A DNA stretch of 64,000 bases from a candidate division WOR-3 bacterium (lineage in GTDB: Bacteria > Hydrothermota > Tepidihabitantia > Tepidihabitantales > Tepidihabitantaceae). The notes beneath the pieces were generated by a model. The model was not told where the DNA came from and searched no databases. It saw only the letters and a program-made list of their open reading frames with translations. Positions 17,668 to 63,545 of the stretch are shown here, one piece after another; position 1 is the first letter of the stretch; every line of letters begins with the position of its first letter. The translations under genes were made by a program, and so were the position numbers. Location of the stretch: positions 310,852-374,851 of the forward strand of contig JBDRTY010000001.1 in assembly GCA_039801085.1 (NCBI GenBank), given 5' to 3'.

Positions 17668-19279
17668 ATGGCTAGTTTACAAGATTTTTCATTGATAACA
17701 TCCGAAATCGCTTACTTAAAGAAAAGATACAGAATAAATGAGTTTTCCCGTGCGTTTATATATGCAGTATTAGAAAAACTATACGAAATCGATATAGATG
17801 AAATAGAAAATTATGTCATAGACGGCGCTTATGATTTTGGCATTGATGCTTATTATTGGGAAGATGCAAGAGCCGACGGAAGAAAAACTATAAATATTTT
17901 TCAATTTAAACATACTGAAAAATTCGAAAATGCGCAAAAAGCAGATGCCTTTCGAGAACGGGATGTTAATGATATTATTGTCAAACTTGAGAGAATCTGG
18001 CATAAAGATGGGTCATTACTGAAATCCCCCAACAGGCGGTTCACGCAGTTAGTCCAGGAGATGTGGGATGCTTTTAATAAAGGGGTAATACAAACGAAAG
18101 TTTGGCTGATTTCTAACTATATTAATTCGATTAGCGATAAGAATAAAATTAAGCATTTCGAAGTGACTGTGCGAGAAAAATTTAAAGCAGATCTTGAAGT
18201 ATGGTCGCTTGATGAATTGGTTTCATTGTTTATAAAAAAAGATTTTCGACCTGTGGATTTGAATTTGCAGTTGAGCGGCAGGCGGTATTTTGATACTACT
18301 ACCGGACAGGTTCGAGCTGTTGTTGGCGTAATTAATGCACATGAACTAATAAAAAAAGTTATCAACGAAAATGATGAATTGAGGGAGGAGATATTTAACG
18401 AAAATATAAGAGTATACTTAACCAGAAATACAAAGGTTAACAGCCAAATTTACAGGACAATAGAAGCCGAACGTGAAAATGCTAATTTCTTTTTCTATAA
18501 CAATGGAATAACAGTAATTTGCGATAGTTTGGTACATGCAAATACAGATAGCCCCGTAGTTGCATTAAAAAATTTTCAGATAGTCAATGGAGGACAAACG
18601 ATTCATGCTCTTTATGAGGCTTATAAAAACAATTTATCTGAGAACATTAAAAACATAGACTTGCTTCTAAGAATTTACGAAGTTAAAAATAGAGATATAG
18701 GACAAGCTATTGCGCGATACACTAACACGCAAAATCCCGTTAGAAGCAGAGATATAATGTCGAACGATCCCGTACAAATTAAAAAAAATAGATGCCGAGA
18801 AGGCGGGGCAAGTAATACTAGCTTTTTATCTGGAGAAGCCAGGAAGCGCTAAGAACAAGAAAAGGGAAATCTTTGGCGATTATTATCAAGAAATATTTGA
18901 TGAAAGCAAAATCGATGCTAAATATGTTCTACTGCCTTATCTGCTTTATGAAAAGATAAATCAAGATATAAGACGAATAAGACAGGAGGAGAAGAAATAT
19001 AAAAGTAATCCTAAAAAGTTGAATGCGTTAGCCAAAGATGAGTTTGTAAAACACGCAGGTTATTATTTATTATTGGGGTTAAAATTTTTTGCTAACAAAA
19101 AGGGGTTAGATTTGAATTTAGATAATACAGGCAAGATCTTTAAAAATTACAAAGATGTTAAAAAAGTTTTAAGAGATATTGTCAAACAACGTATAAGTAG
19201 GTTTCAGGAGAATTTAGTTGATTTGTTCAAAAGTGATGATTTAGTCGAAGAATTGAGGTGTAAGATCTACCAAATATAA
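17668..19279 (+). pseudogene. AIPR-family abortive-infection (phage resistance) protein, disrupted by a 1-nt frameshift in an A8 homopolymer (18781..18788)
   Basis: N-terminal DGAYDFGIDAYY, and the core NFQIVNGGQTIHALYEA (NGxQT). The C-terminal AIPR region IDAEKAGQVILAFYLEKPG...EIFGDYYQEIF continues in the -1 frame from the A-run through to 19279. Confidence 0.65.
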
Positions 19280-19297
19280 ATATAAATAATAGATACC

Positions 19298-20494
19298 ATG
19301 ATTCTAATTTCTATACTAGGAGTATTGGTAATTGTGTTATTTGTAATGTGGTTATCTCGAAGTTCTCAAAAAGCTGCACGTTCAAAAATACACCCCAAGG
19401 GCGAACGGCTAGTAGATGACAGTCACGGTATCTGCAAAAGTGCAAATTTACAATGCGCTGATGATAATGCAGTAGTAGCAGCTACCAATAACGGTTATAT
19501 AATAAATCCTCAAAGCACATTTCCGTTGACCATTTATAACGTTGATCGAGAAACTGCAATTATAATAAAAAAGCTACTTGATACAAAATGCTTTATTGGC
19601 AATGCGCAGGAACTGGTTCCTGTAATTCTTAAAACAAATCTTCGCTGTAAAGAGATCGAGGACTACATCAATACATTCAAACCGCAATATTTTCGTAAAA
19701 TTGAGGAATTGAAACAATCTTCGTCTGAATGGCAATCTGCATCTGAAAAAGATAAAGAGGACTTACTTGCATATTTTCGCGAACAGGCAATTGAATCTCT
19801 GGATATTAGACCATACTGTGACTTGGAGGTATTATTTGAATGTGAACCAGAGGATTTTACCATTGACGACGCTTTGCTTGAGCGATACGGCTATGATGTA
19901 CTACAGGTATATTTAAAATATGCAGGTGATATTAACAAAGTGCGAATCCTACCAGCCGGTCACTTTGAACGTAAAAAATTTGACAGGTTAGTAGAGTTGG
20001 GATTAGCAATAAATGGATATGAAATTGATTCGAAAGCACTTTTAAGCTCGCTGACACTTAAACAGCTTAACGAAATTGCAGCCAGTTTGCAGGAGAAGCC
20101 ATTTAGTCGCAAAAGCAAGGCAATAGAATTTCTAGCGTCACTGCCCGACGTGAGGGGAAAAGTTGGTACTGTGATTGCTCTTAGAGAAGTTTTCCAATTG
20201 CGACCGCTACCGCCAGAATTCTCGCACATAGACCTGAAGAAAATATCTGATATATGGTGTTATGTTTCTGAGATTGCCGAGCTGATAACACATACTTATC
20301 ATATGGGGAATTATGCAAAACAGGACATGCAGAATAATCTTAGTTTGTCCGTAAATATTAGCGAGTGGAAGATTTTGACTGCAGGTGATTCATCGTGCCC
20401 ATATTGCAAGCGTGCTGCGCTCAAAGTATATCCGGCAAATCAGTACCCTAGAGTTCCTTTGCACATAGGATGTAGATGTACAGTAATAAATTGA
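19298..20494 (+). CDS. Hypothetical membrane-anchored protein with a C-terminal Cys/His motif (CPYC...PLHIGCRC), in an operon with the AIPR gene
   Basis: Starts 18 nt after the AIPR stop. One N-terminal TM helix. The C-terminus resembles the conserved motif of phage Mu-F/SPP1 gp7 family proteins. AT-rich like the AIPR gene. Confidence 0.5.
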   Translation: MILISILGVLVIVLFVMWLSRSSQKAARSKIHPKGERLVDDSHGICKSANLQCADDNAVVAATNNGYIINPQSTFPLTIYNVDRETAIIIKKLLDTKCFIGNAQELVPVILKTNLRCKEIEDYINTFKPQYFRKIEELKQSSSEWQSASEKDKEDLLAYFREQAIESLDIRPYCDLEVLFECEPEDFTIDDALLERYGYDVLQVYLKYAGDINKVRILPAGHFERKKFDRLVELGLAINGYEIDSKALLSSLTLKQLNEIAASLQEKPFSRKSKAIEFLASLPDVRGKVGTVIALREVFQLRPLPPEFSHIDLKKISDIWCYVSEIAELITHTYHMGNYAKQDMQNNLSLSVNISEWKILTAGDSSCPYCKRAALKVYPANQYPRVPLHIGCRCTVIN

Positions 20495-51492: not shown

Positions 51493-54333
51493 TCAGCGCA
51501 CAAGAGCAAATCTGGCGATTGACCGTCCAAATGTGGTTTCCAGCACCGCCAGATAGATTCCGGAGCCGGCAGGTTTCCCGGACTCATTCAACCCGTCCCA
51601 GCAGGCATTAATTCCTTCCAGTTCTTCAGAAGCAAAGTATCGTCCCGGAGTCGGCATTCTGGCGGTGTTGAGCTGAACCGTTTTTACCCTGACACCGCTG
51701 GTAGTGTAGATGGTGATCCGGGCGTCCGGAGTGACCCGGCTGAGATTAAGGGCAAAGTAAACCTTCAGGTTTTCCCCGGTAACAAACGGGTTGGGGTAAA
51801 TGAGTGCGATCCGGTCCTGCGGGCTGGGCTGTGTCCTGGGTGATGGCGGGAATCTGCTGAACGCGGAGTCAACACGGGGCACCCCATAACCGAAGGTGCA
51901 GCTTTTCACTGCCCGGCTGGCGGTTGTGTAAAGCGCCACCCGGATTGATTCCGCATTCCATTCGGGGTGTGCCTCCTTGAGCAGGGCACAGCAGCCGGCG
52001 ATCAGGGCGGTGGCACAGGAGGTACCGACGCTGCCTTCAAGGAAGTTTTCCGAATCCGGTGCCGCAACCGCAACGGTATCTGCCAGCGCTACCAGATCGG
52101 GTTTGATTCTGCCGTCAGCGGTCGGTCCGGTACCGGTTCCGCGCCAGGGGGTAAGGTTCTTCTCAACCCCACCGCAGGTGATGACGCCTTCGGCATCGCC
52201 AGGTGCGGTGATATACGGCCGGGGCCAGGGATATTCGGTTGTGTCACGGTTGCCCATCGCGGTGACGATTACCAGCCCGCGGCGTGCTGCCAGCTCGCAG
52301 GCAATTGAGATCGGTGCGGTTCTGCCGTCAAAATGCTCGTCCCGGTACCAGCCCCGATAGCCGAGCGATGTGGAAACAATATCCGCACCGCACTTTTCCG
52401 CCCACTCCAGCGCCTGAATATAGGTATCCTCCTCCATGTTATATTCATATCCCCGGTTGCCGGAAGTCTTGTAATATTCGGTTTTGGCGACAATCAGGTC
52501 GACTCCGGGTGCGATGCCCATCATGGAATAGGGCTGATAACCGGCGATCAGTGAAGCCATTCTGGTGCCGTGATTGGGCTGGTCATAGGAGAACTTCAGT
52601 GTGTCCGAATCTTCCCAGACCGCGATTTCATCACCCCGGCGGAACCAGAGGATGGAACTGTTGTCCGGGGCAGCCACTGGGGAATAGCAGAAACCGAGCG
52701 TATCAACCGGTTCTGTATCACGCCAGCTCATTCCCAAGTCCGGAGTTGTCCGCTGATAGAGCATACCGCCGGATTCGTAAACAAGGGTCAGACCATTGCT
52801 GGTGTGGCTCAGGGTATAATCCCCGAAGGAGCTGGCGGAGTCAATGGTCAGCGGAGAGGACCAGGTGGCGCCGAAGTCCGTTGAGCGGAGCAGATTCAAT
52901 TTTGTCCGGACCGGGTTGCTTTGATCCTGATAAACAAGGAGGCGCAGAGAATCGTGATTTTTTATGGTAAACAGTCTGATGTGTCCGGCACTGCCGGCAA
53001 TCAGTTCTCCATCGGGATTGAAGCTGACACCGCCATCAGTGGAATAAAACTGCCGGACCCGGCCGGTATTTTTCTCCCGGACAAGGAGGTTGATTCTGCC
53101 CTCAGGTCCGGCGCTGAGCTGGGGCTCGGTGAGCGGCTGGTCATGGGTGATTTCGGTATAGAGCAGCCAGTTTGGGGCAGGAGTGGTAATGAGCGCCTTG
53201 CGAAGGGAGATTACGGAATCGCTTTTCAGCCAGGCGGCATAAAGGGTGTCGGCGTAAATTGCCAAACTTGGATGCCTGCCTGTGCCGAGTGTCTGCCGGT
53301 TCTGCCAGCGGTCATTAATGAAATAACCGAGATAACAGGTGGGCGCAGCACCGGGATGCAGATCAACCTCATTAAACGCCAGATAAAATACCGAATCCCG
53401 GCAGTCCAGCTGCAGATTTTCATAAGTGTAGTAATAAGGCCGGGAAACTGCCACCGGCTGCGGCTGGCTCCAGTTTTCTCCCCGGTCAGCAGAAAATGTG
53501 AAGAAGACCGCCCGTGCGGGCAGACCGTAGGTGTAATTGAAACTGTCAGCAACAAAGGCAAGCAGGGTGAGACTGCCGTTGTCGCCCAGTGCCGGGTCCT
53601 TGACCAGACCAAGGTAGCGCAGTCGGGGTATAACTTCAGCTTCTGCTCCTGCATGCCGGATATAAAAATTGTCACCGGACAGAAAGTCATACTGCCGCCA
53701 GATCCGCAGCCGCCGGACCGCCTGGTTCTTGAGCTTCAGCCCGGTGTCAAAGAGCGCCAGTTTCACACCGGTGCCGAACCATCCCTGATAAAAAAGTTTC
53801 GGCACTCCCAGCATCTGCGCCTGATCCCAGGCAGCACCGTAGAACCGGTGGGCATCAGCGGTGTCAAGGGACCGGTAGTTGCGATGTGATTCCGGCTGGG
53901 TAAGCGGGACGGTCAGGTCAAAGGCGGTTTCAGTTTTCCGGGCAACAGGACGGATATCATAAACATAGGGAAGCTGGTAAATTCTCGATACCAGCTCCGG
54001 TGGCATTTCAAAGCTGGCAGCATTCAGCCAGCGGGACACGGTGCGCAGCCGGGCGCCCAGCGCCTCAATTTCCCGAATGTAATCCTGCCGGACCGGCAGG
54101 TCATCAAAGTCAAAGCCGGCAACCGGTTCCCGTGCCCGGCGCTGGAGCTGGGACAGGGATGCGGTCCGGTAGAGGTCAGCAAGCGCCTGCTGATACTGGG
54201 ACTGATTGAATATTCCCTTGTCCGTGAAAAAAACCCAGACCCGGCTGGGGGAGATTTCCGGCGGTGCGGATTTCACCGGAATGCGCACCAGTTCAACTGT
54301 CGCCGGAAGGAAAAGCAGCAGGAAAAGATGCAT
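51493..54333 (-). CDS. S8 subtilisin-family peptidase with a ~400-aa BNR/sialidase-like beta-propeller insertion inside the catalytic domain, and a T9SS C-terminal domain
   Basis: Asp context GVKLALFDTG near residue 190. His (HGTRMASLIAG) and Ser (GTSCATALIAG) only after residue ~600. BNR motifs STDGGVSF and STDFGATWS lie in between. CTD ...GIYLAVLETTFGRSIARFALVR. Confidence 0.6.
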   Translation of the reverse strand: MHLFLLLFLPATVELVRIPVKSAPPEISPSRVWVFFTDKGIFNQSQYQQALADLYRTASLSQLQRRAREPVAGFDFDDLPVRQDYIREIEALGARLRTVSRWLNAASFEMPPELVSRIYQLPYVYDIRPVARKTETAFDLTVPLTQPESHRNYRSLDTADAHRFYGAAWDQAQMLGVPKLFYQGWFGTGVKLALFDTGLKLKNQAVRRLRIWRQYDFLSGDNFYIRHAGAEAEVIPRLRYLGLVKDPALGDNGSLTLLAFVADSFNYTYGLPARAVFFTFSADRGENWSQPQPVAVSRPYYYTYENLQLDCRDSVFYLAFNEVDLHPGAAPTCYLGYFINDRWQNRQTLGTGRHPSLAIYADTLYAAWLKSDSVISLRKALITTPAPNWLLYTEITHDQPLTEPQLSAGPEGRINLLVREKNTGRVRQFYSTDGGVSFNPDGELIAGSAGHIRLFTIKNHDSLRLLVYQDQSNPVRTKLNLLRSTDFGATWSSPLTIDSASSFGDYTLSHTSNGLTLVYESGGMLYQRTTPDLGMSWRDTEPVDTLGFCYSPVAAPDNSSILWFRRGDEIAVWEDSDTLKFSYDQPNHGTRMASLIAGYQPYSMMGIAPGVDLIVAKTEYYKTSGNRGYEYNMEEDTYIQALEWAEKCGADIVSTSLGYRGWYRDEHFDGRTAPISIACELAARRGLVIVTAMGNRDTTEYPWPRPYITAPGDAEGVITCGGVEKNLTPWRGTGTGPTADGRIKPDLVALADTVAVAAPDSENFLEGSVGTSCATALIAGCCALLKEAHPEWNAESIRVALYTTASRAVKSCTFGYGVPRVDSAFSRFPPSPRTQPSPQDRIALIYPNPFVTGENLKVYFALNLSRVTPDARITIYTTSGVRVKTVQLNTARMPTPGRYFASEELEGINACWDGLNESGKPAGSGIYLAVLETTFGRSIARFALVR

Positions 54334-54341
54334 TAATTATA

Positions 54342-54415
54342 TACCCCGCGCAGGAATTGAACCTGCAACCCACGGATTAAGAATCCGTTGCTCTGCCAGG
54401 TTGAGCTAGCGGGGC
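54342..54415 (-). tRNA. tRNA-Lys (anticodon CTT)
   Basis: Acceptor GCCCCGC/GCGGGGT, anticodon loop TTCTTAA, T-loop TTCAATT. Confidence 0.75.
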
Positions 54416-54435
54416 ACAAATTACCATTTTTCATC

Positions 54436-54509
54436 TGCGCCCGGCGCGACTCGAACGCGCAGCCTACGGGTTCGAAGCCCGGCGCTCTATCCAGTTGAGC
54501 TACGGACGC
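54436..54509 (-). tRNA. tRNA-Arg (anticodon TCG). Identity is less certain because of one anticodon-stem mismatch.
   Basis: Acceptor GCGTCCG/CGGGCGC (one G-U pair), anticodon loop CTTCGAA, T-loop TTCGAGT. Confidence 0.6.
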
Positions 54510-54519
54510 ATGCATTCAG

Positions 54520-54595
54520 GGTGAGTGAGGGGACTCGAACCCCCAACATCCTGAGCCACAGTCAGGTGCTCTAACCGAATTGAGCTACACTCACC
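54520..54595 (-). tRNA. tRNA-His (anticodon GTG) with a genomically encoded G-1
   Basis: Extra 5' G paired to C73. Acceptor GTGAGTG/CACTCAC, anticodon loop CTGTGGC. Confidence 0.75.
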
Positions 54596-54709
54596 GTGCG
54601 ACTCAATTTTTCTTCAGTATAGCAATTTCCCGACCGTTTGTCCACTCTTGCATTGCGGGAATTCGATGGTAATATCTTCGGCGGGAAAATCAAAGAAAGG
54701 AGTAAGTTG

Positions 54710-55711
54710 ATGAGTCAGACCAGGCCAATGAGGAAGATACTGGTGACCGGCGCAGTCGGTCAGATCGGCTCCGAGCTGACGCTGGCGCTCCGTCAGCGCT
54801 ACGGAGCGGAGAATGTGATCGCCACCGGCAGAAAGACCCAGCCGAGCAGGGAGCTCCTGGAGTCCGGGCCATTCTACTTTATCGATGTAGCAAAGCGGGA
54901 GACGATTGAGGAGGTGGTGAGAAAGCACAACATTGACACCATCTTTCACCTGGCGGCGATTCTGTCCGCTGCCGGCGAAAAGAACCCCCAGCTCGCCTGG
55001 GATGTGAATATCAACGGGCTCTACAATGTGCTCGAGGTGGCACGCGAACACAATATGGCGCGGGTGATTGTGCCCAGCTCAATTGCGGTCTTCGGACCTG
55101 AGACCCCGCGCCAGAATACCCCGAACGAGACGATTCTCAAGCCGAGAACAATGTATGGAATCACCAAGGTAGCGGGTGAACTGCTGGGTGATTACTACTT
55201 CCGGCGTTTCGGTCTGGATGTGCGCGGACTGCGCTATCCGGGCATCATCTCCAATGTCACCCTGCCGGGTGGCGGTACCACCGATTATGCAGTTGAGATC
55301 TTCTACGCCGCAATCAAATTCCGGCGCTACAAGTGTTTCCTCCGGGAAGATACCCGGTTGCCGATGATGTACATGCCTGACTGCATCAAGTCAACAATCA
55401 TGCTTGCTGAGGCACCGCTGGAAAAGCTCAAGCACCACTGCGACTTCAATGTCACCGCCATGAGCTTCTCGGCGGGTGAGCTTGCTGCCGAGATCAGAAA
55501 GCACATCCCGGATTTTGAAGTCACCTACGAACCCGATTTCCGTCAGCAGATCGCCGACTCCTGGCCCGAGTCGATTGACGATTCGGCTGCCCGGGAGGAG
55601 TGGGGCTGGAAACCGGATTATGACCTGCCGGCAATGGTTAAGGACATGCTTGAGGTGCTGGGCAGAAGGCATAAGGAGGGGAAACTGGGCTGGCCCCCGG
55701 AAGGGGCATAG
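54710..55711 (+). CDS. NAD-dependent epimerase/dehydratase-family protein, L-threonine 3-dehydrogenase-like (extended SDR)
   Basis: AAGGAG RBS. GAVGQIGSEL Rossmann motif and YGITK catalytic motif. Confidence 0.55.
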   Translation: MSQTRPMRKILVTGAVGQIGSELTLALRQRYGAENVIATGRKTQPSRELLESGPFYFIDVAKRETIEEVVRKHNIDTIFHLAAILSAAGEKNPQLAWDVNINGLYNVLEVAREHNMARVIVPSSIAVFGPETPRQNTPNETILKPRTMYGITKVAGELLGDYYFRRFGLDVRGLRYPGIISNVTLPGGGTTDYAVEIFYAAIKFRRYKCFLREDTRLPMMYMPDCIKSTIMLAEAPLEKLKHHCDFNVTAMSFSAGELAAEIRKHIPDFEVTYEPDFRQQIADSWPESIDDSAAREEWGWKPDYDLPAMVKDMLEVLGRRHKEGKLGWPPEGA

Positions 55712-55720
55712 CTCTGACTG

Positions 55721-56494
55721 ATGGAGGACATCCGCAAACAGCGGCCTGAGGGTTCGATTCCGATTGACAAGGTCGGGGTCAAGAACCTGCGCTATCCGAT
55801 CGTCCTTCTGGACAGGGCGCACAAGCGTCAGCACACGATCGCCACGATCAGCATGTTTGTTGACCTGCCCAAGGAGCAGCGCGGTACCTTCATGGGCAGG
55901 TTTGTTGAGATCCTCAACCGCTATCACCGGGAGATTGATGTCCACAGGCTGGGCACAATTCTCAGGGAGATGCGGGAACGGCTCGGCGCCAACTCCGCCC
56001 ATCTGGAGATGGAGTTTCCCTACTTTGTGGAGAAGTGTGCACCGGTATCCGGGGTCCGTTCCCAGATGGACTACCGGTGCTGGATCAGCGCCAGCCTGAG
56101 CGACCGGTTTATGCTCCGGCTCGGGGTGGCGGTGCCGGTAACGACCCTGTGTCCCTGTTCAAGGGAGATGTCCGGCAGAGGCGGGCACAACCAGCGGGCA
56201 GAGATCCGGGCGGTCGTGGAGTTCAAGGGGTTTGTCTGGATTGAGGACCTGATTGATCTTCTCGAGGAGTGCGGCTCAAGCGAGGTGTATTCACTGCTGG
56301 AGCGGGAGGATGAGAAGCACCTCACCGCTCAGGCGCTGGACAACCCGGCGTTTGTTGAGGATGTGGTGCGCAAGGTGGCACAGCGGCTTGATGCCCATCC
56401 CCAGATCACCGGTTATGAGGTGGAGGTGGAGAGTTTTGAATCCATCCACCACCACGAAGCCTATGCCTATATCAACCGCTTCCGCTCGGGATGA
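55721..56494 (+). CDS. folE2: GTP cyclohydrolase FolE2/MptA (type IB)
   Basis: IPIDKVGVKNLRYPI...TIATISMFVDLP...CPCS motifs characteristic of FolE2 (DUF198). Confidence 0.7.
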   Translation: MEDIRKQRPEGSIPIDKVGVKNLRYPIVLLDRAHKRQHTIATISMFVDLPKEQRGTFMGRFVEILNRYHREIDVHRLGTILREMRERLGANSAHLEMEFPYFVEKCAPVSGVRSQMDYRCWISASLSDRFMLRLGVAVPVTTLCPCSREMSGRGGHNQRAEIRAVVEFKGFVWIEDLIDLLEECGSSEVYSLLEREDEKHLTAQALDNPAFVEDVVRKVAQRLDAHPQITGYEVEVESFESIHHHEAYAYINRFRSG

Positions 56495-57090
56495 AGACCC
56501 TGCTCGTTGACTGCTACCTCAAGGATGCCGAGTCCCGGCTCGTTTATTACCGGCAGATGATTCAGCCCTGGTCCGAGATTTCTGAGATAAAGCTCGCGGA
56601 GCTGAAACCGGGGCTTGACTTTACTCAATACGATGCGGTGGTGCTCACCGGTTCCCAGTGGATGCTTTCGGAAAGGGATGTGCCCGAACCGGTTAAGGCG
56701 GTGCTCCGCCAGCTGCTCCTGCCGGTGCTCGGCATCTGCTTCGGTCACCAGCTCCTTGCCCGCTCCTTCGGTGCGGAGGTCAAAAGCGGGCCGGAATTCA
56801 TCGACCGGATGGAGCGGATCCGGTTTCAGCCCTGGCGCCTGTTTGCCGGGCTGGCGCCGGAGGCGGAGATGCGGGAGAGCCACCGGGAATATGTCACCCC
56901 GGAATCGCTCGAACGGATGGGCTGGGAGATCGGTGCGGTTTCTTCTTCCTGTCCGGTTGAGGCGATAAGGCATCCCCGGCTCCCGCTCTACGGTGTTCAG
57001 TTCCATCCGGAGCGGTCAGAAATAAATGGCGAAATACTGTTCCGCAACTTCTACGAGATCGTCAAATCAGTCCGCACCGGCCAGGGCTGA
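56491..57090 (+). CDS. Class I glutamine amidotransferase-like protein
   Basis: GICFGHQLL (catalytic Cys) and VQFHPE (His/Glu). Start overlaps the folE2 stop. Confidence 0.6.
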   Translation: MKTLLVDCYLKDAESRLVYYRQMIQPWSEISEIKLAELKPGLDFTQYDAVVLTGSQWMLSERDVPEPVKAVLRQLLLPVLGICFGHQLLARSFGAEVKSGPEFIDRMERIRFQPWRLFAGLAPEAEMRESHREYVTPESLERMGWEIGAVSSSCPVEAIRHPRLPLYGVQFHPERSEINGEILFRNFYEIVKSVRTGQG

Positions 57091-57094
57091 CGCA

Positions 57095-57803
57095 GACACA
57101 GCAAAGAGATTTCTCCGCTCCGGTTGAGATGATCCTTTCTGTCATTCCGAGTGGAGCGAAGCGGAATCGAGGAATCCCTTTTTTCTTCTTCCGTCATTCC
57201 GAGCCTGTTGAGGAATCTCCTTCAAGAGATTTCTCGACTCCGCCCTTCGGGCTCCGCTCGAAATGACCGAAAGGGAAGTCATTCCGCGCCTGTCGAGGAA
57301 TCGCTTTTAAGGGATTTCTCCACTGCGGTCGAAATGACGAAAAGGGAAGTCATTCCGGGCTTGTCGAGGAATCTCTTTTAAGCGATTTCTCCACTCCGCC
57401 TCGCTCTGCTCGGCTCCGGTCGAAATGACCGAAAAAAAATGTGCCTGCGGCTTCGCTCCGGTCGAAATGACCCTTACTTGTCATTCCGGGTGGAGCGAAG
57501 TGGAAGCGGTGAATCTCCTTTTTCTCAGACTGAGAGGGATTTCTCGACTGCGCTCGAAATGACCCAAACAGGTTACTGCGGTCGGATAGACCTCTGCGGG
57601 TCGTTCCATGCCTTTCTTTTATTGTCATTCCGAGTGAAGCGAAGCGGAATCGAGGAATCTCTCTTTTCTTCTTCCGTCATTCCGCGCCTGTCGAGGAATC
57701 TTCTTCAAGAGATTTCTCGACTCCGCCCTTCGGGCTCCGCTCGAAATGACCGTTTTATTATTGTGTCATTCCGGGCGAGGCGTCAGCCGAGTCGAGGAAT
57801 CGG
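57095..57803. repeat. Tandem array (about 9 units) of degenerate imperfect-palindromic repeats (gtcattccg...cgaggaatc...gatttctc...cgaaatgac), 40-80 nt each, separated by ~10-nt a/g-rich linkers
   Basis: Unit starts at 57141, 57193, 57278, 57349, 57480, 57624, 57676, 57765. Each unit's two arms are near-reverse-complements (gtcattYcg / cgRaatgac, cgaggaatc / gatttctcg). Confidence 0.7.
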
Positions 57804-57823
57804 TAAATCAGTGCAAAATGCAA

Positions 57824-57864
57824 AATCTGTCAAGCTGTTGACAGATTCAAATGCTGCTTATAAT
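57824..57864 (+). promoter_or_regulatory. Sigma70-like promoter (TTGACA-N15-TATAAT), with a perfect 10-bp inverted repeat AATCTGTCAA-gctg-TTGACAGATT over the -35. Candidate operator.
   Basis: IR arms at 57824..57833 and 57838..57847. -35 at 57838..57843, -10 at 57859..57864. Confidence 0.5.
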
Positions 57865-57884
57865 TACTGTGAGCCGATGAGTTT

Positions 57885-57909
57885 CTACTCTACTCTACTC
57901 TACTCTACT
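57885..57909 (+). repeat. (CTACT)5 pentanucleotide microsatellite in the 5' leader
   Basis: ctactctactctactctactctact lies ~20 nt downstream of the -10. The paralogous locus has 10 copies. Confidence 0.8.
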
Positions 57910-58056
57910 CTACTCCTTATTACTCCAATATCTTAACCCCTCGGGTGAGGTGCGGGCAGGCAGGCGGTGCTGCTGGCGGCAGTCTGCTGCCAGCGGTTGG
58001 AAGTCAGCAGGCAACCTGATAGATTTAAATCATTAAAAGCGGAAAGGAGGTTGAGG

Positions 58057-59658
58057 ATGAAAAAGGCAAGTTTGTTCAGGTTGCTGATTTTAAGCACCGC
58101 AGTGCTCGCGGGGGCGATGTTAGCACAGGAGTGGGAAAGGCTGGAAGATGTGCCGGTTCCGGTTCAGCGCTGGGCATGTCTGACATATTCCTACAGCGAG
58201 TATGGTTCAAGGTCCTATGACACGGTCTGGGGTGTCTTTCCGGCACCTGCCTACGGCAAAACCTGGTTCCTTTATTACGACTGTGTTGACGGCCACTGGC
58301 ATTATCCCGCTGATTCGGTGATCAACCGGGATATGAAACAGACCGCTTTGACCTTTCAATGGCTGGAAGAGGGAGTTGTTTATCTTGTGGGGCAGACATT
58401 GGACGGAGACAACCTCTTCTGGTATCCGTTGAATGAAGGGCGCTGGCATTCAGAGCCGATAACTGCCTTTGCTCTTGGTCCCCGTCCCGGGCTGGCATAT
58501 AAAGCAAATCCCGGCTACAACCAGCAGCTTGAGCCGATACCGGGCTGGCTTTACTGTCTTGCCGGTGGTGGTCAGCAGTTCTGGCGCTACTGGCTGCCGA
58601 GCAGTTATCCGCCGGTGACGGTGGATGGCATCTACCCGGCTCAGGGTGCCCTGATTGCAGATCAGACACCGGTGTTCATCTGGCAGGAGGAAGGGGCAGC
58701 GATTGAATACCGGCTGGTGGTGGCGACCGATCCACAGTTTAGTAACACGGTGATCAATGTCATCACCACGGTGCCGCAGTATTAGGTGGAGACCAGACTG
58801 GCAAATGGCGACTATTACTGGCAGACCGCATCCCGGAGTGCAGGCAGTGGCTGGAAGACCGGACCGGTGCACAGCTTCCGGCTTCAGGGTGGCTGGGAGC
58901 GGCTGGCAGATATCCCGACGCGGGTTGGTGATGGCGGGGCGCTTGCCTACTGCGGGAAGTTCTTCGGCACATCTTCAGACATCTTCATTGCCTTTGTCGG
59001 GGGCGGCGACACCGTCTGCTACGCCTATGTGGACGAGTATAATCGCTGGGTGCGGCTGTATAGTGAAGAGTATGTGCCTCCGCAGAACATCGGCGCAGCT
59101 CTGAGTGCGCATCGGGGGCTTTATATGGACCGAGGGACTCCTTATGCTATTTGGGGGATTGGTGATAACTATTTTCGATTTTATGAGTGGGGGAGATGGA
59201 CTCAAGGAGCTCCAGCGCTCCCAGAAGATATCGGGCCGGGTGCATCTTTAGCTGTGGGGCGGTACCATTTACAACCTTATGGCGCTTATCTTTACTTCAT
59301 TCCCGGGTCCGATCCAAGAAATGGAACACCAAGAGTCTCCTTCTGGCGAAAGCTGGTCTTTGCTTATGACGGGCAGACAAAGGTACAGAAGTCGGGTGGA
59401 ATGGGTGATGAGGGGTTGTATAGCAATCAGATGATTCTGGCTGGTGGTAAAGGGGTGATAGCTTATGTGCTGGACCGACCGGCGAATGTGCGGATAGCGG
59501 TTTTTGATGCTGCGGGCAGAAGGGTTGCTCTGCCATATGCTGGCAGGCAGGATGGAGGTCACCATCTGGTCCGCTGGCATTTCAAGGGTGCCGGAGCGTA
59601 TTTTGTCCTTGTTGACATTGACGATGAAAGGCATAAATTCAAGGTGGTTGTGCGGTAG
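58057..59658 (+). pseudogene. T9SS-secreted surface protein (paralog of 61698..63545) with an in-frame TAG at 58783..58785 inside a conserved Fn3-like segment
   Basis: GAAAGGAGG RBS. Signal peptide MKKASLFRLLILSTAVLAG is identical to the paralog. ORFs 57967..58785 and 58786..59658 share frame 1. CTD ...GAYFVLVDIDDERHKFKVVVR. Confidence 0.55.
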
Positions 59659-59716
59659 AACAAAGGTAAAGGCGGCGGGGCGGAATTGCCCCGCCGCACA
59701 AAGGGGCAGAGGGTTG

Positions 59717-61060
59717 ATGGCTTATTTCCTTTTAATTTTCCTTTGTCCTGCGACTGTCTTCGGACAGGTGGTGGAGCTGGACACAGTATTGACTTTCCCT
59801 CAGCGGATTCTGAATGGTTTTTATGTCTCCGAGTTGAATAAATTATACATTTCCAGCCGTAACAAGATTTATGTGGTTGACTGTTCAACCTGTCAGATGG
59901 GTGAGATTCCGATCAGCTGGGGAGGTGATAATCATTTTGCTTATAATCAGCAGGGCAGGAAATTGTATGTGAAGGACCAGGGATACAGTGACAGTGTGGC
60001 GGTGATTGATGTGCTGGGCGATACGGTTATTAAATGGATTTCAATCAGCGGTATTCAGGCAAGGAACTTGGCTTATGCCAGGAATACTAACCGGCTGTAT
60101 TTCGGTGGTGTGCGGCTTTGTGTAGTGAACTGTGATAATGACAGCATTATCAGGGAGATTGCTCCTCCTCTTTCCGGTTACTATTTCGCGGCGGCGGACT
60201 GGGATGCTGAGCAAATGAAGCTTTATGTGTCATTAGCGAGATGGGGGTATCCGCCGATGATGGCGGTCTATGATACGAGTGAGTCGCTGGTGGCGCTGTT
60301 GCGGGTTCCGATTGTTGAGCCGTTTGCCCTGCAGTTTCATCATCAGCTGGGCAAGGCATATTTTGCCGGCTATGCCATGGATTGTGCGGGTGTGATTGAC
60401 ACGAAAAACGACACCTTTGTTCGCTGGTTTCCGATTCTGGTTGTGTATTCCGGCCTGGTTCCCTATGCGCTGGATACGATTGACGACAAGTTCTACTGTG
60501 CAGCTGCGCGTCAGCATTGGCCCGACACGCTGTATGTGATTGACTGTGTGACCGACTCCATCGTCAAAAAGCTCCTGGAGGCGGGCTGGGGACCTTTGTC
60601 GGTGCGCTGGGCGGCCTGGAGCAACCGGCTGTATTTCACCGGTGGTCCGCGTGGTGAGACGCTGAAGGTCCTGGACTGCCGGACCGATTCGGTGATTGAC
60701 CGGGTGTATCTGGAGGAGTATAGCCTCTTCGGGCCGCCGGACATTGAGCTGGACCCGGTCCGGCACCGCATCTTTGCGATTGGCTGTGACAGCGCGCTGT
60801 ATGTTCTGCGCGAGCTGGAGCAGGGGGTTGAGGAGGAGCGGAGCAACAATCCGGGGCGGTCAGCGCCCACAGTGGTGCGGGGTGTGCTGTATCTGCCGGA
60901 GCGGGCAGGAGCGGCAGGTAAGCCGGTGCTGGTGGACATCACCGGCAGGCGGGTGCGGGAGCTTGTGCCCGGTGCCAATGATGTGCGGGGTCTGGTACCA
61001 GGGGTGTATTTTGTCCGCAGCAATGCCGGCGTGGAACGCAAAGTAGTGATTGCACGGTAG
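59717..61060 (+). CDS. YVTN-family beta-propeller repeat protein with a T9SS C-terminal domain
   Basis: Signal peptide MAYFLLIFLCPATVFGQ. Repeated KLYVS/NRLYF(T)G units. CTD ...GVYFVRSNAGVERKVVIAR. Confidence 0.55.
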   Translation: MAYFLLIFLCPATVFGQVVELDTVLTFPQRILNGFYVSELNKLYISSRNKIYVVDCSTCQMGEIPISWGGDNHFAYNQQGRKLYVKDQGYSDSVAVIDVLGDTVIKWISISGIQARNLAYARNTNRLYFGGVRLCVVNCDNDSIIREIAPPLSGYYFAAADWDAEQMKLYVSLARWGYPPMMAVYDTSESLVALLRVPIVEPFALQFHHQLGKAYFAGYAMDCAGVIDTKNDTFVRWFPILVVYSGLVPYALDTIDDKFYCAAARQHWPDTLYVIDCVTDSIVKKLLEAGWGPLSVRWAAWSNRLYFTGGPRGETLKVLDCRTDSVIDRVYLEEYSLFGPPDIELDPVRHRIFAIGCDSALYVLRELEQGVEEERSNNPGRSAPTVVRGVLYLPERAGAAGKPVLVDITGRRVRELVPGANDVRGLVPGVYFVRSNAGVERKVVIAR

Positions 61061-61423
61061 GAAAGGGATTTCTCCACTGCGCTCGAAATGACATAAACAG
61101 GTTACTGCGGTCGGATAGACCTCTGCGGGTCGTTCCATGGCTTTGCTTTCTTGTCATTCCGAGTGAAGCGAAGCGGAATTGAGGAATCCCTTTTTTCTTC
61201 TTCCGTCATTCCGCGCCTGTCGAGGAATCTCCTTCAAGAGATTTCTCGACTCCGCCCTTCGGGCTCTGCTCGAAATGACCGAAAGAGAAGTCATTCCGCG
61301 CCTGTCGAGGAATCTCTTTTAAGCGATTTCTCCACTCCGCCTCGCTCTGCTCGGCTCCGGTCGAAATGACCGTTTTATTATTGTGTCATTCCGCGCGAGG
61401 CGTCAGCCGAGTCGAGGAATCGG
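61061..61423. repeat. Second, shorter copy of the tandem palindromic-repeat array (4-5 units), homologous to 57525..57803
   Basis: Unit starts at 61153, 61205, 61290, 61385. Also shares the unique ~60-nt segment caaacaggttactgcggtcggatagacctctgcgggtcgttccatg. Confidence 0.7.
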
Positions 61424-61443
61424 TAAATCAGTGCAAATTGCAA

Positions 61444-61485
61444 AATCTGTCAAGCTGTTGACAGAATTCAAATTCTGCTTATAAT
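61444..61485 (+). promoter_or_regulatory. Paralogous promoter/operator: AATCTGTCAA-gctg-TTGACAGAAT, then TTGACA-N16-TATAAT
   Basis: -35 at 61458..61463, -10 at 61480..61485. One-base insertion in the right IR arm and spacer relative to copy 1. Confidence 0.5.
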
Positions 61486-61505
61486 TACTGTGAGCCGATG
61501 AGTTT

Positions 61506-61555
61506 CTACTCTACTCTACTCTACTCTACTCTACTCTACTCTACTCTACTCTACT
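61506..61555 (+). repeat. (CTACT)10 pentanucleotide microsatellite in the 5' leader
   Basis: Ten perfect tandem CTACT copies. The flanks are identical to the (CTACT)5 locus. Confidence 0.8.
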
Positions 61556-61697
61556 CCTTATTACTCCAATATCTTAACCCCTCGGGTGAGGTGCGGGCAG
61601 GCAGGCGGTGCTGCTGGTGGCAATCTGCTGCCAGTGGTTGGAAGTCAGCAGGCAACCTGATAGATTTAAATCATTAAAAGCGGAAAGGAGGTTGAGG

Positions 61698-63545
61698 ATG
61701 AAAAAGGCAAGTTTGTTCAGGTTGCTGATTTTAAGCACCGCAGTGCTCGCGGGTATTGCGTTTGGAAGATGGGAGCCGCTTGATCCGGTTGGCGATGGTG
61801 AAGTGGTTGGTCCTGGCGGCTGTGCGGCACGGGGTAGGGGCTACACCTTCGTTGCAATAGGGGATGGGAGGAGGAAGGTATATGCATTTGATCATGAGGG
61901 TGAAATGTGGGATGAAATAGAAGTACCGATGCCCGAGGCAATTGATTATGCCGGCGCGATGGCATATGAACTTGGATATGGACGTCATTTGTATGTTGTG
62001 ACTGATGAAAGCGGAGGAAAACTTCAGGTGTATCGTTTTTATGAAAATGAAGACTTGGAAGGCGAGTGGTTGCCACCGATTCCATTACCGGAATCAATCG
62101 GTCCTGGTGTGGCACTGGCCTTTGTTCCCTGTGTGAGGGCAGACACAACCCATATTGGTGACCTTTACCTTCTGGTGGGAAAATGCACCCGACATTTTTA
62201 CCGGCGTTCATTTGACTGGATCGCCGAGCTTGATGCCCTCGGTCCGGGCAATGATGCGGAAATAACGGTGCAGGATATCTGTCTTGACTGGCTCCCTGAT
62301 CCCTGGTGGGATTCATACCGGTTACAGGTGTCATCCAATGCAGATTTTACCAGCCTGGTGCTGGATACGGTGATATCGGTTGGTGAATTCAAACCAGCAG
62401 GTGCGGTATTCCCCTCTGCAACCGGCACTTATTACTGGCGGGTCCGGGGTATTAAAGACGGGCATCACTCGGACTGGTCCGAAGCTCAAAGTTTCACTTT
62501 AGCCCAGCAGAATACCTCTCTCAATTACGAGATTATTCCTGCCGATGGGTTGCTGATAAGCGGTGATGAGCTGGTATTTGACTGGCAGCCTCAGAGTGAT
62601 GCGGAATCCTACCGGCTGCAGGTGGCGCTATCCCCGGATTTTTCCGAGCCGGTGATTGATGTTATTACCGATGTGAGTGAATGGGTGGCAGAGCAACCGC
62701 TTGAGACTGGCACATACTACTGGCGGGTGTGCTGCCGGAGAGCAAATGGCTGGGACAGCTGGACTCAACCGATTGAGTTTCAGGTTGAATACGGCTGGCA
62801 GCGACTGCCGGACATTCCATCTGACACCCCGGTTGGAGCCGGTGGTGCGATGTGCTATGTTAAGGCCAGGGATGGTGATACTATGGCACTCTATGTGCTG
62901 GTGGGGAATGGCAGCAGTCAGTTCTGGCGGTTCAATCTCAGTGAGGGTGGAGTCTGGCAGGAGCGGGCTGAAACCCCTTATCCGCAGACCGGCGGCGCAG
63001 CAATTACATCATATCAGAGGTGGCAGCAATCAAGCGACCTGTGGGCGATTTTTGGCGATTTGGTGGAATTCAGGCGTACTTTCAAAATAAATCATAACGG
63101 TTGGGCGAGAATTGATCATCCTCTTCCCCGGGTTTGCGAATACGGTTCATCGATTGTTCGCAACGAGCCTGATTACCATCTTGTTTTAGTCGTTGCCGGT
63201 GAATATCCTGAGGACAGCACCAACTTTTATGCCTGGGTGCCGGATACGGCTAAGGACGGAGAGGAGGGTGCGCAGGCGCGGTCGGCGGGCTTTGGTCCAG
63301 CCGATGTCCGGTTTGGGCGCACCGGCTCTGATCTGTGGCTGAATTACACGCTCTCGGAGCCGGCAGCAGTGGATATCGGTCTGTTTAACCCTGCGGGTCA
63401 GAAGGTGGCAAGTTTATATTCAGGGTGGCAAAGCGCCGGTTGTCATCAGCACCGATACAGACCCGGTTCGCTGATAAAGGGGGTTTGCTTTATCAGGGTT
63501 GACATTGCGGGCAGAAGCACTACTATCAAGCTAACCGCATGGTAG
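61698..63545 (+). CDS. T9SS-secreted surface protein with two Fn3-like modules (intact paralog of 58057..59658)
   Basis: GAAAGGAGG RBS and the same signal peptide. Repeated YRLQVS..DF......TGTYYWRV modules. CTD ...GVCFIRVDIAGRSTTIKLTAW. A GC hairpin follows at 63560..63584. Confidence 0.6.
   Translation: MKKASLFRLLILSTAVLAGIAFGRWEPLDPVGDGEVVGPGGCAARGRGYTFVAIGDGRRKVYAFDHEGEMWDEIEVPMPEAIDYAGAMAYELGYGRHLYVVTDESGGKLQVYRFYENEDLEGEWLPPIPLPESIGPGVALAFVPCVRADTTHIGDLYLLVGKCTRHFYRRSFDWIAELDALGPGNDAEITVQDICLDWLPDPWWDSYRLQVSSNADFTSLVLDTVISVGEFKPAGAVFPSATGTYYWRVRGIKDGHHSDWSEAQSFTLAQQNTSLNYEIIPADGLLISGDELVFDWQPQSDAESYRLQVALSPDFSEPVIDVITDVSEWVAEQPLETGTYYWRVCCRRANGWDSWTQPIEFQVEYGWQRLPDIPSDTPVGAGGAMCYVKARDGDTMALYVLVGNGSSQFWRFNLSEGGVWQERAETPYPQTGGAAITSYQRWQQSSDLWAIFGDLVEFRRTFKINHNGWARIDHPLPRVCEYGSSIVRNEPDYHLVLVVAGEYPEDSTNFYAWVPDTAKDGEEGAQARSAGFGPADVRFGRTGSDLWLNYTLSEPAAVDIGLFNPAGQKVASLYSGWQSAGCHQHRYRPGSLIKGVCFIRVDIAGRSTTIKLTAW

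Follow-up and report, generated by a model that had tools for sequence, protein, structure and literature searches.

Strain-variable arrays of Ssn-type hairpins beside surface-protein genes in a candidate division WOR-3 bacterium

The closest described counterparts of the repeats treated here, two arrays of hairpins at positions 57108-57801 (array 1) and 61067-61421 (array 2) of a 64-kb stretch of DNA from a candidate division WOR-3 bacterium (GCA_039801085.1, contig JBDRTY010000001.1, positions 310,852 to 374,851; the whole stretch is hereafter called the window), are the CGTC-tagged repetitive extragenic palindromes (REPs), the dRS3/NTS repeats of Neisseria, and the Ssn-related motifs (SRMs). 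The CGTC-tagged superfamily was defined by Di Nocera, De Gregorio and Rocco (2013, PMC3733652), and in their paper the tag is often TGTC or CCTC, the stem measures 8-9 bp, starts with A-T and T-A and encloses a 4-5-nt loop, and a short unpaired tail with the consensus CCA follows. The paper describes the repeats as mostly head-to-head (HH) dimers, often heterodimers, with tail-to-tail and tandem arrangements being rare, and places them in five phyla including Chlorobi and Bacteroidetes; it reports REPs near the 3' ends of genes, equates CGTC-1 with Neisseria dRS3, and links no tyrosine transposase to CGTC repeats.

In Neisseria, dRS3 repeats (ATTCCC-N8-GGGAAT) flank RS elements of about 50-150 bp in the Neisseria intergenic mosaic elements (NIMEs), arrays of which lie beside surface-protein genes, vary between strains, have been proposed to serve as recombination substrates, and were stated to be unseen outside Neisseria (Bentley et al. 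2007, PMC1797815). In its oriented form, dRS3 is known as the NTS (Neisseria Transformation Sequence), CGTCATTCCCGCGMAVGCGGGAATCYRG, and the related SRMs flank small GIY-YIG genes (ssn) in many bacteria in the arrangement SRM-ssn-SRM (Chenal et al. 2025, PMC11893778). According to that study, the characterized Ssn proteins are single-domain GIY-YIG nucleases of about 95 amino acids that bind the hairpin only as single-stranded DNA (ssDNA) and only in the forward orientation, do not bind RNA, and cut a few nucleotides 5' of the GTC; the critical bases are the GTC, which sets the orientation and is required for cleavage, and the C after the palindrome, the latter mattering most for binding. In N. 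meningitidis, Ssn restricts the integration of NTS-bearing transforming DNA, and the string used to search for SRMs was built by hand from 29 genomes of four phyla (PMC11893778).

The window holds 15 hairpin half-units in array 1 (eight of type A and seven of type B, one B being degenerate and one truncated) and seven in array 2 (four A and three B). The array exists as a real feature: the window contains 23 copies of the nonamer GTCATTYCG, compared to 1.2 expected by chance, with 21 of the 23 inside the two arrays, and CGAGRAATC occurs 14 times against 1.5 expected. No unit copies were found elsewhere in the window. A preliminary description made from the DNA letters had placed a repeat array at 57095-57803 and a second one at 61061-61423, with linkers cgaaagggaa and gaaaagggaa and unit ends gtcattccg and cgaaatgac, and had located the first between the end of an operon and the promoter of a surface-protein gene, all of which is borne out. 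Its account of the edges needs correction: array 1 was said to start 5 nt after the stop codon of the glutamine amidotransferase gene and to run straight into the promoter, but the first copy, which is degenerate, starts 18 nt past the TGA at 57088-57090, and about 37 nt of TGCAAAA repeats separate the array from the promoter.

The elementary unit is a half-unit of 25-46 nt, in which GTC is followed by a 5-nt arm with AT at its start; a variable inner stem-loop, the arm that pairs with the first, and a C complete it, so that the general plan reads (T/C)GTC + ATTCC...GGAAT + C. The short and long unit types distinguished in the preliminary description are both present, with the long type of 61-81 nt being an inverted pair of half-units and the short one a single half-unit of 36 nt rather than basic units in themselves. 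Two stem variants are tied to the strand, type A (ATTCC/GGAAT) to the plus strand and type B (ATTTC/GAAAT) to the minus strand, and over both arrays all 12 plus-strand copies of type A read GTCATTCCG...CGAGGAATC and all nine minus-strand copies of type B read GTCATTTCG...GAGAAATC. The difference between the two stems is a C>T change compensated by G>A. The GTCAT start is present in 8/8 A and 6/7 B units of array 1 (the exception being the degenerate B at 57108-57133) and in 7/7 units of array 2, the stem starts with AT in all units, and a cytosine stands 3' of the palindrome in every intact unit, which ends in GGAATC or GAAATC. The GTC is invariant and is preceded by T, C, A or G, and the trailing unpaired C is followed by TC, TG, CC or TT, rarely by CA. 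The window units carry all the determinants of an Ssn-type (CGTC-tagged) hairpin, namely the GTC, the stem starting with AT, and the trailing C.

Most half-units are paired with their tags outward, as A, a 10-nt loop, and B, and the resulting inverted pairs are connected by purine-rich linkers of 10-14 nt; three A units are unpaired, and spacers overall measure 10-16 nt, apart from one of 60 nt. Folded as DNA, the inverted pairs reach -11.8 to -16.4 kcal/mol (z -2.6 to -3.7). Array 1 as a whole folds as RNA at -308.7 kcal/mol (vs -243 +/- 7.7 for shuffles; z = -8.5). The earlier proposal that the units form hairpins is supported.

Compared with the CGTC superfamily, the window units have the (C/T)GTC tag, the A-T/T-A start of the stem, an unpaired C in the tail, HH dimers with frequent heterodimers, and no recurrent transposase among the neighbours at the 120 loci treated below, and the superfamily is known from Chlorobi and Bacteroidetes, which belong to the superphylum of WOR-3. 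Peptides in the supplement of that paper back-translate to GTCATCCCGGCGAAGGCCGGGATC and GTCATTGCCGGGCTTGACCCGGCAATCCA, which follow the same plan as the window units. In contrast to the superfamily's stem of 8-9 bp with a 4-5-nt loop, the window stem has five perfect pairs followed by mismatches and a variable inner hairpin; its tail is C plus T or C instead of CCA, and the window units stand in arrays, whereas grouping is described as rare in the superfamily. Like NIMEs, the window arrays consist of ATTCC...GGAAT hairpins, are intergenic, stand beside surface-protein genes that are themselves mosaic or variable, differ in length between strains, and contain recombination end points. Unlike NIMEs, they have spacers of 10-16 nt in place of the 50-150-bp RS elements, two stem variants that alternate by strand, and an unrelated host. 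Stems of ATTCC/ATTTC with variable inserts fall outside the NIME definition of dRS3 flanking RS elements, and the arrays are NIME-like in their working only.

The likeness to SRM/NTS lies in an oriented hairpin of 20-50 nt with GTC 5' of an AT(T)CC palindrome and C 3' of it, in clustering near surface- or membrane-protein genes and rarely within genes, and in a subtype that flanks GIY-YIG genes with its tags outward. The differences are an inner stem with G.A mismatches (GAG...CGA) or other inserts, on which the published string fails, the lack of an ssn gene in the window and in about 70 kb of WOR-3 relatives, and an uncultured WOR-3 host that lies outside the published survey (PMC11893778). 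The REP-BIME (bacterial interspersed mosaic element) and REPIN-RAYT systems of E. coli and Pseudomonas also comprise short extragenic hairpins in two subtypes alternating in orientation, inverted doublets, a repeat-flanked gene for a cognate enzyme, and recognition of single-stranded DNA. In those systems, however, the tag is GTAG (GTRG) rather than GTC, the enzyme is an HUH/Y1 transposase rather than a GIY-YIG nuclease, and REPs are usually lineage-specific, whereas the family of the window is conserved across phyla. The repeat fits the CGTC/TGTC-tagged REP superfamily, for which the names dRS3/NTS and SRM are also in use. The preliminary description had suggested a REP/BIME-like element, which is supported, and had at the same time called the family novel unless the units fell within a known element family; because they fall in a known REP superfamily (PMC3733652, PMC11893778) and recur far beyond WOR-3, the claim of novelty is refuted.

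To place the hairpin among other bacteria, one genome per species (596 Gb in total) was scanned with the pattern GTCATTCCG-N(4-30)-CGAGGAATC, which gave at least 120 loci. The hairpin is present in more than 120 genomes of about 17 phyla, including Chloroflexota, Acidobacteriota, Planctomycetota, Bacteroidota, Ignavibacteriota, Verrucomicrobiota, Nitrospirota, Gemmatimonadota, Armatimonadota, Patescibacteria, Bacillota, Desulfobacterota, Pseudomonadota and others, with isolates of Hymenobacter, Flavobacterium and Methylophaga among the hosts. By chance, a few hundred matches would be expected in 596 Gb, spread evenly over insert lengths, but the observed inserts are highly non-random: 87/155 are 7-9 nt long, and the commonest are AGCGAAG, AGCGGAG, AGCGTAG and AGCGCAG, therefore giving GTCATTCCGAGCGNAGCGAGGAATC as the canonical unit. 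This form has a 3-nt loop and reaches nine stacked stem positions only if two G.A mismatches are counted. As a DNA mini-hairpin, d(GCGNAGC) has unusual stability, and good stacking is a property of tandem G.A pairs.

When stems were collected at the same loci without demanding complementarity, complementary combinations made up 230/257 (TTC/GAA 15, CCC/GGG 11, CCT/AGG 11, TCT/AGA 9, GTT/AAC 5 and GTC/GAC 4 among them), and the non-complementary ones were nearly all singletons; across phyla, the structure of the hairpin is under constraint. GTC is preceded by T in 198/251 cases (79%) and by C in 30/251. Dimers are arranged with the tags outward in 58 cases (32 heterodimers and 26 homodimers), inward in six, and in tandem in eight. 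Hairpins lie in open reading frames (ORFs) in 43% of cases, compared to 88% of random positions, and are thus enriched outside coding sequence. A literature search for the unit sequence strings returned unrelated primer matches only.

The hairpin is nearly absent from PLSDB plasmids and deposited phage genomes. Uncultivated viral contigs labelled as such in IMG/VR contain the exact pattern in at least 120 stretches, some with 4-6 copies per contig (L213-L292 and more). The canonical hairpin also occurs in a Nanoarchaeota metagenome-assembled genome (L046, on a 3.8-kb contig) and in two Patescibacteria (L030, L033); the archaeal copy reflects either spread across domains or a binning error. Another kind of array was seen in a Dehalococcoidia chromosome (L016, 6247-7141), where seven identical hairpins lie inside a tandem repeat of about 329 nt.

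Among the 120 loci, a regex search found one GIY-YIG gene adjoining a hairpin (L024; Pfam GIY-YIG match, 1.9e-11). With its protein as the query, 80 related metagenomic genes were gathered, and a hairpin matching a generalized pattern lies within 600 nt of 54/80 of them, compared to 3/80 in shuffled sequence. A forward hairpin stands no more than 150 nt upstream in 37/74 loci and a reverse hairpin no more than 200 nt downstream in 35/67, with 28 loci having both, and the strand bias is 39:6 upstream and 41:13 downstream. About 30% of the hairpins flanking GIY-YIG genes are of the GAG...CGA subtype, and units nearly identical to types A and B flank such genes in L172, L143, L146 and L192, the last having A and B on opposite strands. 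Taken together, the mismatch to the published string, the architecture, and the gene association place the GAG...CGA hairpins as a subtype within the Ssn world that lies outside the published search pattern.

Comparison with relatives shows that the local arrays are unstable and that this coincides with gene-content breakpoints. In GCA_026418295.1 (L123), whose amidotransferase is 87% identical to that of the window, only two half-units (B + A) stand at the site of the 15 in the window, followed by a homologous promoter, and the same B-A-promoter module stands before each of several tandem surface-protein genes in that assembly; a third relative has a B unit alone at the same intergenic site. 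Synteny joins window 54001-57176 to L123 5508-8690 and window 57765-59108 to L123 13188-14530; the two blocks are separated by 4.5 kb with three genes in L123 and by about 590 nt of stacked units in the window. Both junctions of this 4.5-kb, three-gene difference fall in A units. At the site of array 2, a strain with a downstream gene 98% identical (L129) has four half-units on a contig that spans the locus, compared to seven in the window, and a further assembly (L128) holds an additional six-unit array past the end of the window. The anticipated difference in unit number between strains is therefore present at both sites, with 15 vs 2 (L123) and 7 vs 4 (L129). A WOR-3 relative with a 54% identical homologue of the downstream gene (L130, 20-51) has, upstream of that homologue, a similarly built hairpin whose stem is of a third variant, GTCATTGCGAG...CAAAGCAATC.

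The blocks of the two arrays are tandem and segmental duplicates of one another, and the units of array 1 are mutually 89-95% identical. Array 1 opens on the minus strand with the degenerate B half-unit at 57108-57133, which reads GATTTCTCC...TGAGATGAT on the plus strand and has a B-type counterpart at the matching position in the relatives L123 and L127. It is followed by a single A half-unit of 36 nt at 57141-57176 (plus strand; GTCATTCCGAGTGGAGCGAAGCGGAATCGAGGAATC, with the mini-hairpin motif GCGAAGC) and by three HH heterodimers, each with a 10-nt loop between A on the plus strand and B on the minus strand: 57193-57267 (A 57193-57217, B 57228-57267; -16.4 kcal/mol as DNA, z -3.7), 57278-57338 (A 57278-57302, B 57313-57338; -11.8 kcal/mol, z -2.6) and 57349-57429 (A 57349-57373, B 57384-57429, the latter with an extended inner stem). 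The third of these is a 71-nt tandem duplicate of the second (89% identity), and Tandem Repeats Finder reports the corresponding 71-nt period at 57258-57395. A truncated B half-unit at 57443-57471 (minus strand) has kept ...GCTTCGCTCCGGTCGAAATGAC and lost the GATTTCTC arm, and forms a tag-inward palindrome with the next A unit.

That A unit belongs to a diverged HH dimer at 57480-57563, in which an A variant ending in GGTGAATC (57480-57515, plus strand) is separated by a 22-nt loop from a B unit (57538-57563, minus strand). From 57532 onward, the sequence is homologous (94%) to what comes, at array 2, after the stop codon of the upstream surface-protein gene (from 61061), a pattern that recombination between modules, with loss or gain of the genes in between, would produce. 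There follow a 60-nt spacer with a decayed unit (..GGTCGTTCC..; 57564-57623), which recurs at 61093-61152, a second single 36-nt A half-unit at 57624-57659 (plus strand), and an HH heterodimer at 57676-57750 (A 57676-57700 on the plus strand, 10-nt loop, B 57711-57750 on the minus strand; -15.0 kcal/mol, z -2.9). The single A unit at 57624-57659 is part of a 130-nt duplication detected with a repeat finder, in which 57623-57752 repeats 57140-57269 with 95% identity. The last A half-unit, at 57765-57801 (plus strand), is the right-hand breakpoint of the 4.5-kb difference from L123 and is orthologous to the single pre-promoter A unit there (8655-8690, 13188-13223). Array 2 begins 6 nt past the TAG of the upstream T9SS-type gene and is a mosaic of array-1 blocks (84-95% identity), consisting of B 61067-61092, the 60-nt spacer, A 61153-61188, A 61205-61229/B 61240-61279, A 61290-61314/B 61325-61370 and A 61385-61421.

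Array 1 is probably a cluster of Ssn-type hairpins comparable to BIMEs and NIMEs, which recombination lengthens and shortens; its function in this organism is inferred. In the ancestral state, each surface-protein paralogue would have had one B and one A unit ahead of its promoter, after the preceding stop codon. Such repeated modules would then have been stacked into the present array by unequal homologous recombination or by slippage, and the same events would have added or removed the intervening genes. If a cognate Ssn is encoded, the units on both strands would be ssDNA cleavage sites during replication, repair or DNA uptake, and cleavage would modulate recombination around the surface-protein genes, by analogy with what has been shown for Neisseria. 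The roles as a recombination substrate or protein-binding site raised in the preliminary description both appear reasonable by comparison with the known traits of the family. As a secondary and passive effect, stable hairpins stacked over 700 nt right behind the stop codon could prevent read-through and shield the upstream mRNA at its 3' end, and a passive terminator or insulator role of this kind is plausible and compatible with a role at the DNA level.

Several observations weigh against reading the array as a recombining cluster of Ssn-type hairpins, and they concern (i) the fold, (ii) the array history, and (iii) the enzyme. (i) With nearest-neighbour DNA parameters, single half-units do not fold significantly better than shuffles, and the stability ascribed to GNA triloops and sheared G.A pairs is general background. 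(ii) The interior unit count of array 1 comes from one assembly, and the 4.5-kb difference can be read either as a deletion in the window or as an insertion in L123. (iii) The GIY-YIG query is identified at the level of Pfam GIY-YIG only, and its membership of CDD cd10448 is putative. An Ssn-like GIY-YIG gene was not found in the 64-kb window or in about 70 kb of WOR-3 relatives, and a cognate nuclease in the WOR-3 genome is therefore hypothetical. In addition, the published SRM string HGTCWYN(0-2)YYVSBRHN(0-5)WNVSBRGN(0-2)RNCYNB gives 0 regex matches among the window units; it also misses the canonical GTCATTCCGAGCGAAGCGAGGAATC of the GAG...CGA subtype, and the NTS used as a control matches.

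A more far-reaching proposal, which we put forward only tentatively and consider less probable than the cluster itself, is that WOR-3 has a NIME-like system independent of that in Neisseria. Here, Ssn-type modules would stand between all genes of a tandem family of surface proteins secreted by the type IX secretion system (T9SS), fused to a portable cassette of promoter, (TCTAC)n, leader and signal peptide, and would act as crossover or cleavage points for gene gain, loss and shuffling, with the A/B arrays as the scars of these events. The GAG...CGA subtype, which occurs in some 17 phyla as well as in viral contigs, would then be a large part of the SRM family that the published string missed.

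Among the alternatives, action as RNA survives best, and we regard it as possible without thinking it probable. The array would form the 3' end of the transcript of the folE2-glutamine amidotransferase operon (array 2 that of a surface-protein gene), where it would terminate or insulate transcription and shield the mRNA from 3' exonucleases as E. coli REPs do, and it may coexist with the DNA-level explanation. This is consistent with a distance of 6-22 nt between the stop codons and the first units, in L123 as in the window, with the lack of a canonical intrinsic terminator on the plus strand between the stop codon and the next promoter, with the RNA fold of the array at z -8.5 given above, and with the REPs near 3' gene ends that PMC3733652 reports. 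On the other hand, no strand bias relative to transcription was seen for single units in the 120 loci (17 same/15 opposite), nor was there a depletion of divergent intergenic positions (21 divergent vs 21 convergent), both by crude gene calls; the hairpins are not followed by a U-tract, and Ssn does not bind RNA (PMC11893778). The pairing itself points in the same direction: the short hairpins pair perfectly on both strands and the long ones have one G.U (or G.T) and one A.C on either strand, and neither strand's transcript is favoured because each long hairpin has this pair of imperfections either way.

That the units are conventional miniature transposable elements (MITEs), or REPINs mobilized by a RAYT, each inserted independently, is unlikely. 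Inverted pairs with conserved ends and many copies in many genomes would suit such elements, and the hairpin-gene-hairpin layout recalls an insertion sequence, both at our own loci and in the discussion of PMC11893778. The inverted terminal repeats around a short non-coding core are likewise MITE-like, and the units could plausibly be deletion derivatives of a gene-carrying element. Yet target-site duplications are absent at 54 HH dimers (2-nt flank matches 3 vs 3.4 expected; 3-nt matches 1 vs 0.8), single half-units are common, and the 5' tag is (T/C)GTC and not the GTAG of RAYT-associated REPs. No recurrent neighbour gene or transposase emerged from an all-against-all BLAST of 3,823 ORFs at the 120 loci, which returned generic families only, and PMC3733652 found no link between CGTC repeats and a tyrosine transposase. 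Moreover, tandem and segmental duplication explains the window units, with no other copies in the 64 kb.

An assembly artefact, through a mis-join or over-expansion of the repeat, is very unlikely, even though three short-read assemblies, from the same strain or a sister strain, stop within the arrays or at their edges (L001, L125, L126, L128). Two independent same-species short-read assemblies reproduce the array edges exactly and break off inside the array (L126, L001, L128), with base-for-base agreement over 150 nt at the start of array 1 and 35 nt at the end of array 2; because these assemblies break inside array 1, its interior copy number is without independent confirmation. The contig from another strain that spans the array-2 locus (L129) has a genuine four-unit array, the further six-unit array in L128 adds another case, and an identity of 89-95% among units is not what a collapsed or duplicated read pile would give.

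It is extremely improbable that the array encodes small RNAs, as had been considered in the preliminary description, or a protein: ORFs of 76-165 amino acids do overlap it (57151-57381 and 57439-57936 on the plus strand, 57350-57628 on the minus strand), but they are translated repeats, no promoter-like site was found on the plus strand upstream of or within array 1, and Rfam gives no match at the gathering score, with chance-level hits up to E 10. In the window as a whole, tRNAs alone reach the Rfam threshold, and the best other matches in the region have E values of at least 0.09 and a quarter to two-fifths of the gathering score. Translated repeats of this type are a familiar source of spurious ORFs, and N-terminal extensions observed in the present analysis illustrate this. 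A CRISPR array was rejected, in agreement with the preliminary description, since the units alternate in orientation, the spacers are themselves repeated, and the lengths vary.

The genes around the arrays are in keeping with a surface-protein locus. Upstream of array 1 lie an epimerase gene, folE2, and a class-I glutamine amidotransferase gene that ends at 57090. Array 1 is followed by a promoter module at 57812-57864 (plus strand), which comprises (TGCAAAA)n, the palindrome AATCTGTCAAgcTGTTGACAGATT over the -35 hexamer, TTGACA at 57838-57843, a 15-nt spacer, and TATAAT at 57859-57864; the promoter module is copied along with array 2 at 61436-61485, where the spacer is 16 nt. The copying extends further, as 57532-58112 and 61061-61753 share 91-94% identity through the TGCAAAA repeats, the -35 palindrome, the promoter, (TCTAC)n, a leader of about 190 nt, and the first 55 nt of the gene, which encode the signal peptide MKKASLFRLLILSTAVLAG. 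The downstream genes encode secreted proteins with Ig-like/FN3-like domains, or homologues of proteins with FlgD-Ig or T9SS sorting domains, and the gene at 59504-61060 ends with a T9SS-type tail. No record of the exact protein encoded at 58057-58785 was found on an independent contig.

Within the promoter modules, the -35 hexamer lies inside the palindrome at 57812-57848 and 61436-61468, for which a terminator scan gives an 11-pair stem, and TGCAAAA heptamers precede it; this arrangement, which relatives share, resembles an operator combined with an A-tract upstream element. About 20 nt 3' of the -10 hexamer, perfect (TCTAC)n repeats stand in the transcribed leader, with six copies at 57884-57913 and ten at 61505-61554. 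At the site orthologous to the second promoter there are six and two copies in two other strains, and three copies stand at a paralogous site in a more distant relative (positions in relatives: L128 116-145; L129 121-130 and 4031-4040; L123 13321-13335). This hypervariable simple repeat may be a phase-variation switch for the surface-protein genes. The leader itself (57870-58056, 61490-61697) contains a GC-rich hairpin, ggtgctgctggcggcagtctgctgccagcgg..., is conserved in both paralogues as well as in L123 and L129, and matches no Rfam family (the best, Zeta-pan at E 0.28, stays well under the threshold); the leader is a candidate for a cis-regulatory RNA.

The window sequence at 58057-59658 is an orthologue of a 523-amino-acid L123 protein interrupted by an in-frame TAG at 58783-58785. 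Its product is 96% identical to the L123 protein over residues 1-242 and 54% identical over the rest, and DNA similarity stops near 59108; the gene is mosaic and possibly a pseudogene. Elsewhere in the window, a region at 17668-20494 has 34% G+C, compared to about 56% in the remainder, and carries an AIPR (abortive-infection) family protein and an ORF without a Pfam match, and probably represents a defence islet that was acquired. Three tRNA genes (Lys-CTT, Arg-TCG, His-GTG) form a minus-strand cluster at 54341-54594, between an S8 peptidase gene and the epimerase gene.

For genome work on WOR-3, these arrays matter because they break short-read assemblies precisely at surface-protein loci and also generate spurious ORFs. 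The comparison presented here removes a false flag of a novel element and ties the array to a family that has an ssDNA-cutting partner enzyme. It also widens the family, which now reaches an uncultured phylum and takes in a hairpin subtype that escapes the published SRM pattern. Finally, on the basis of a three-gene difference that ends in repeats and of a change in array length from strain to strain, the locus provides a second, unrelated case of hairpin arrays that bound variable surface-protein genes.

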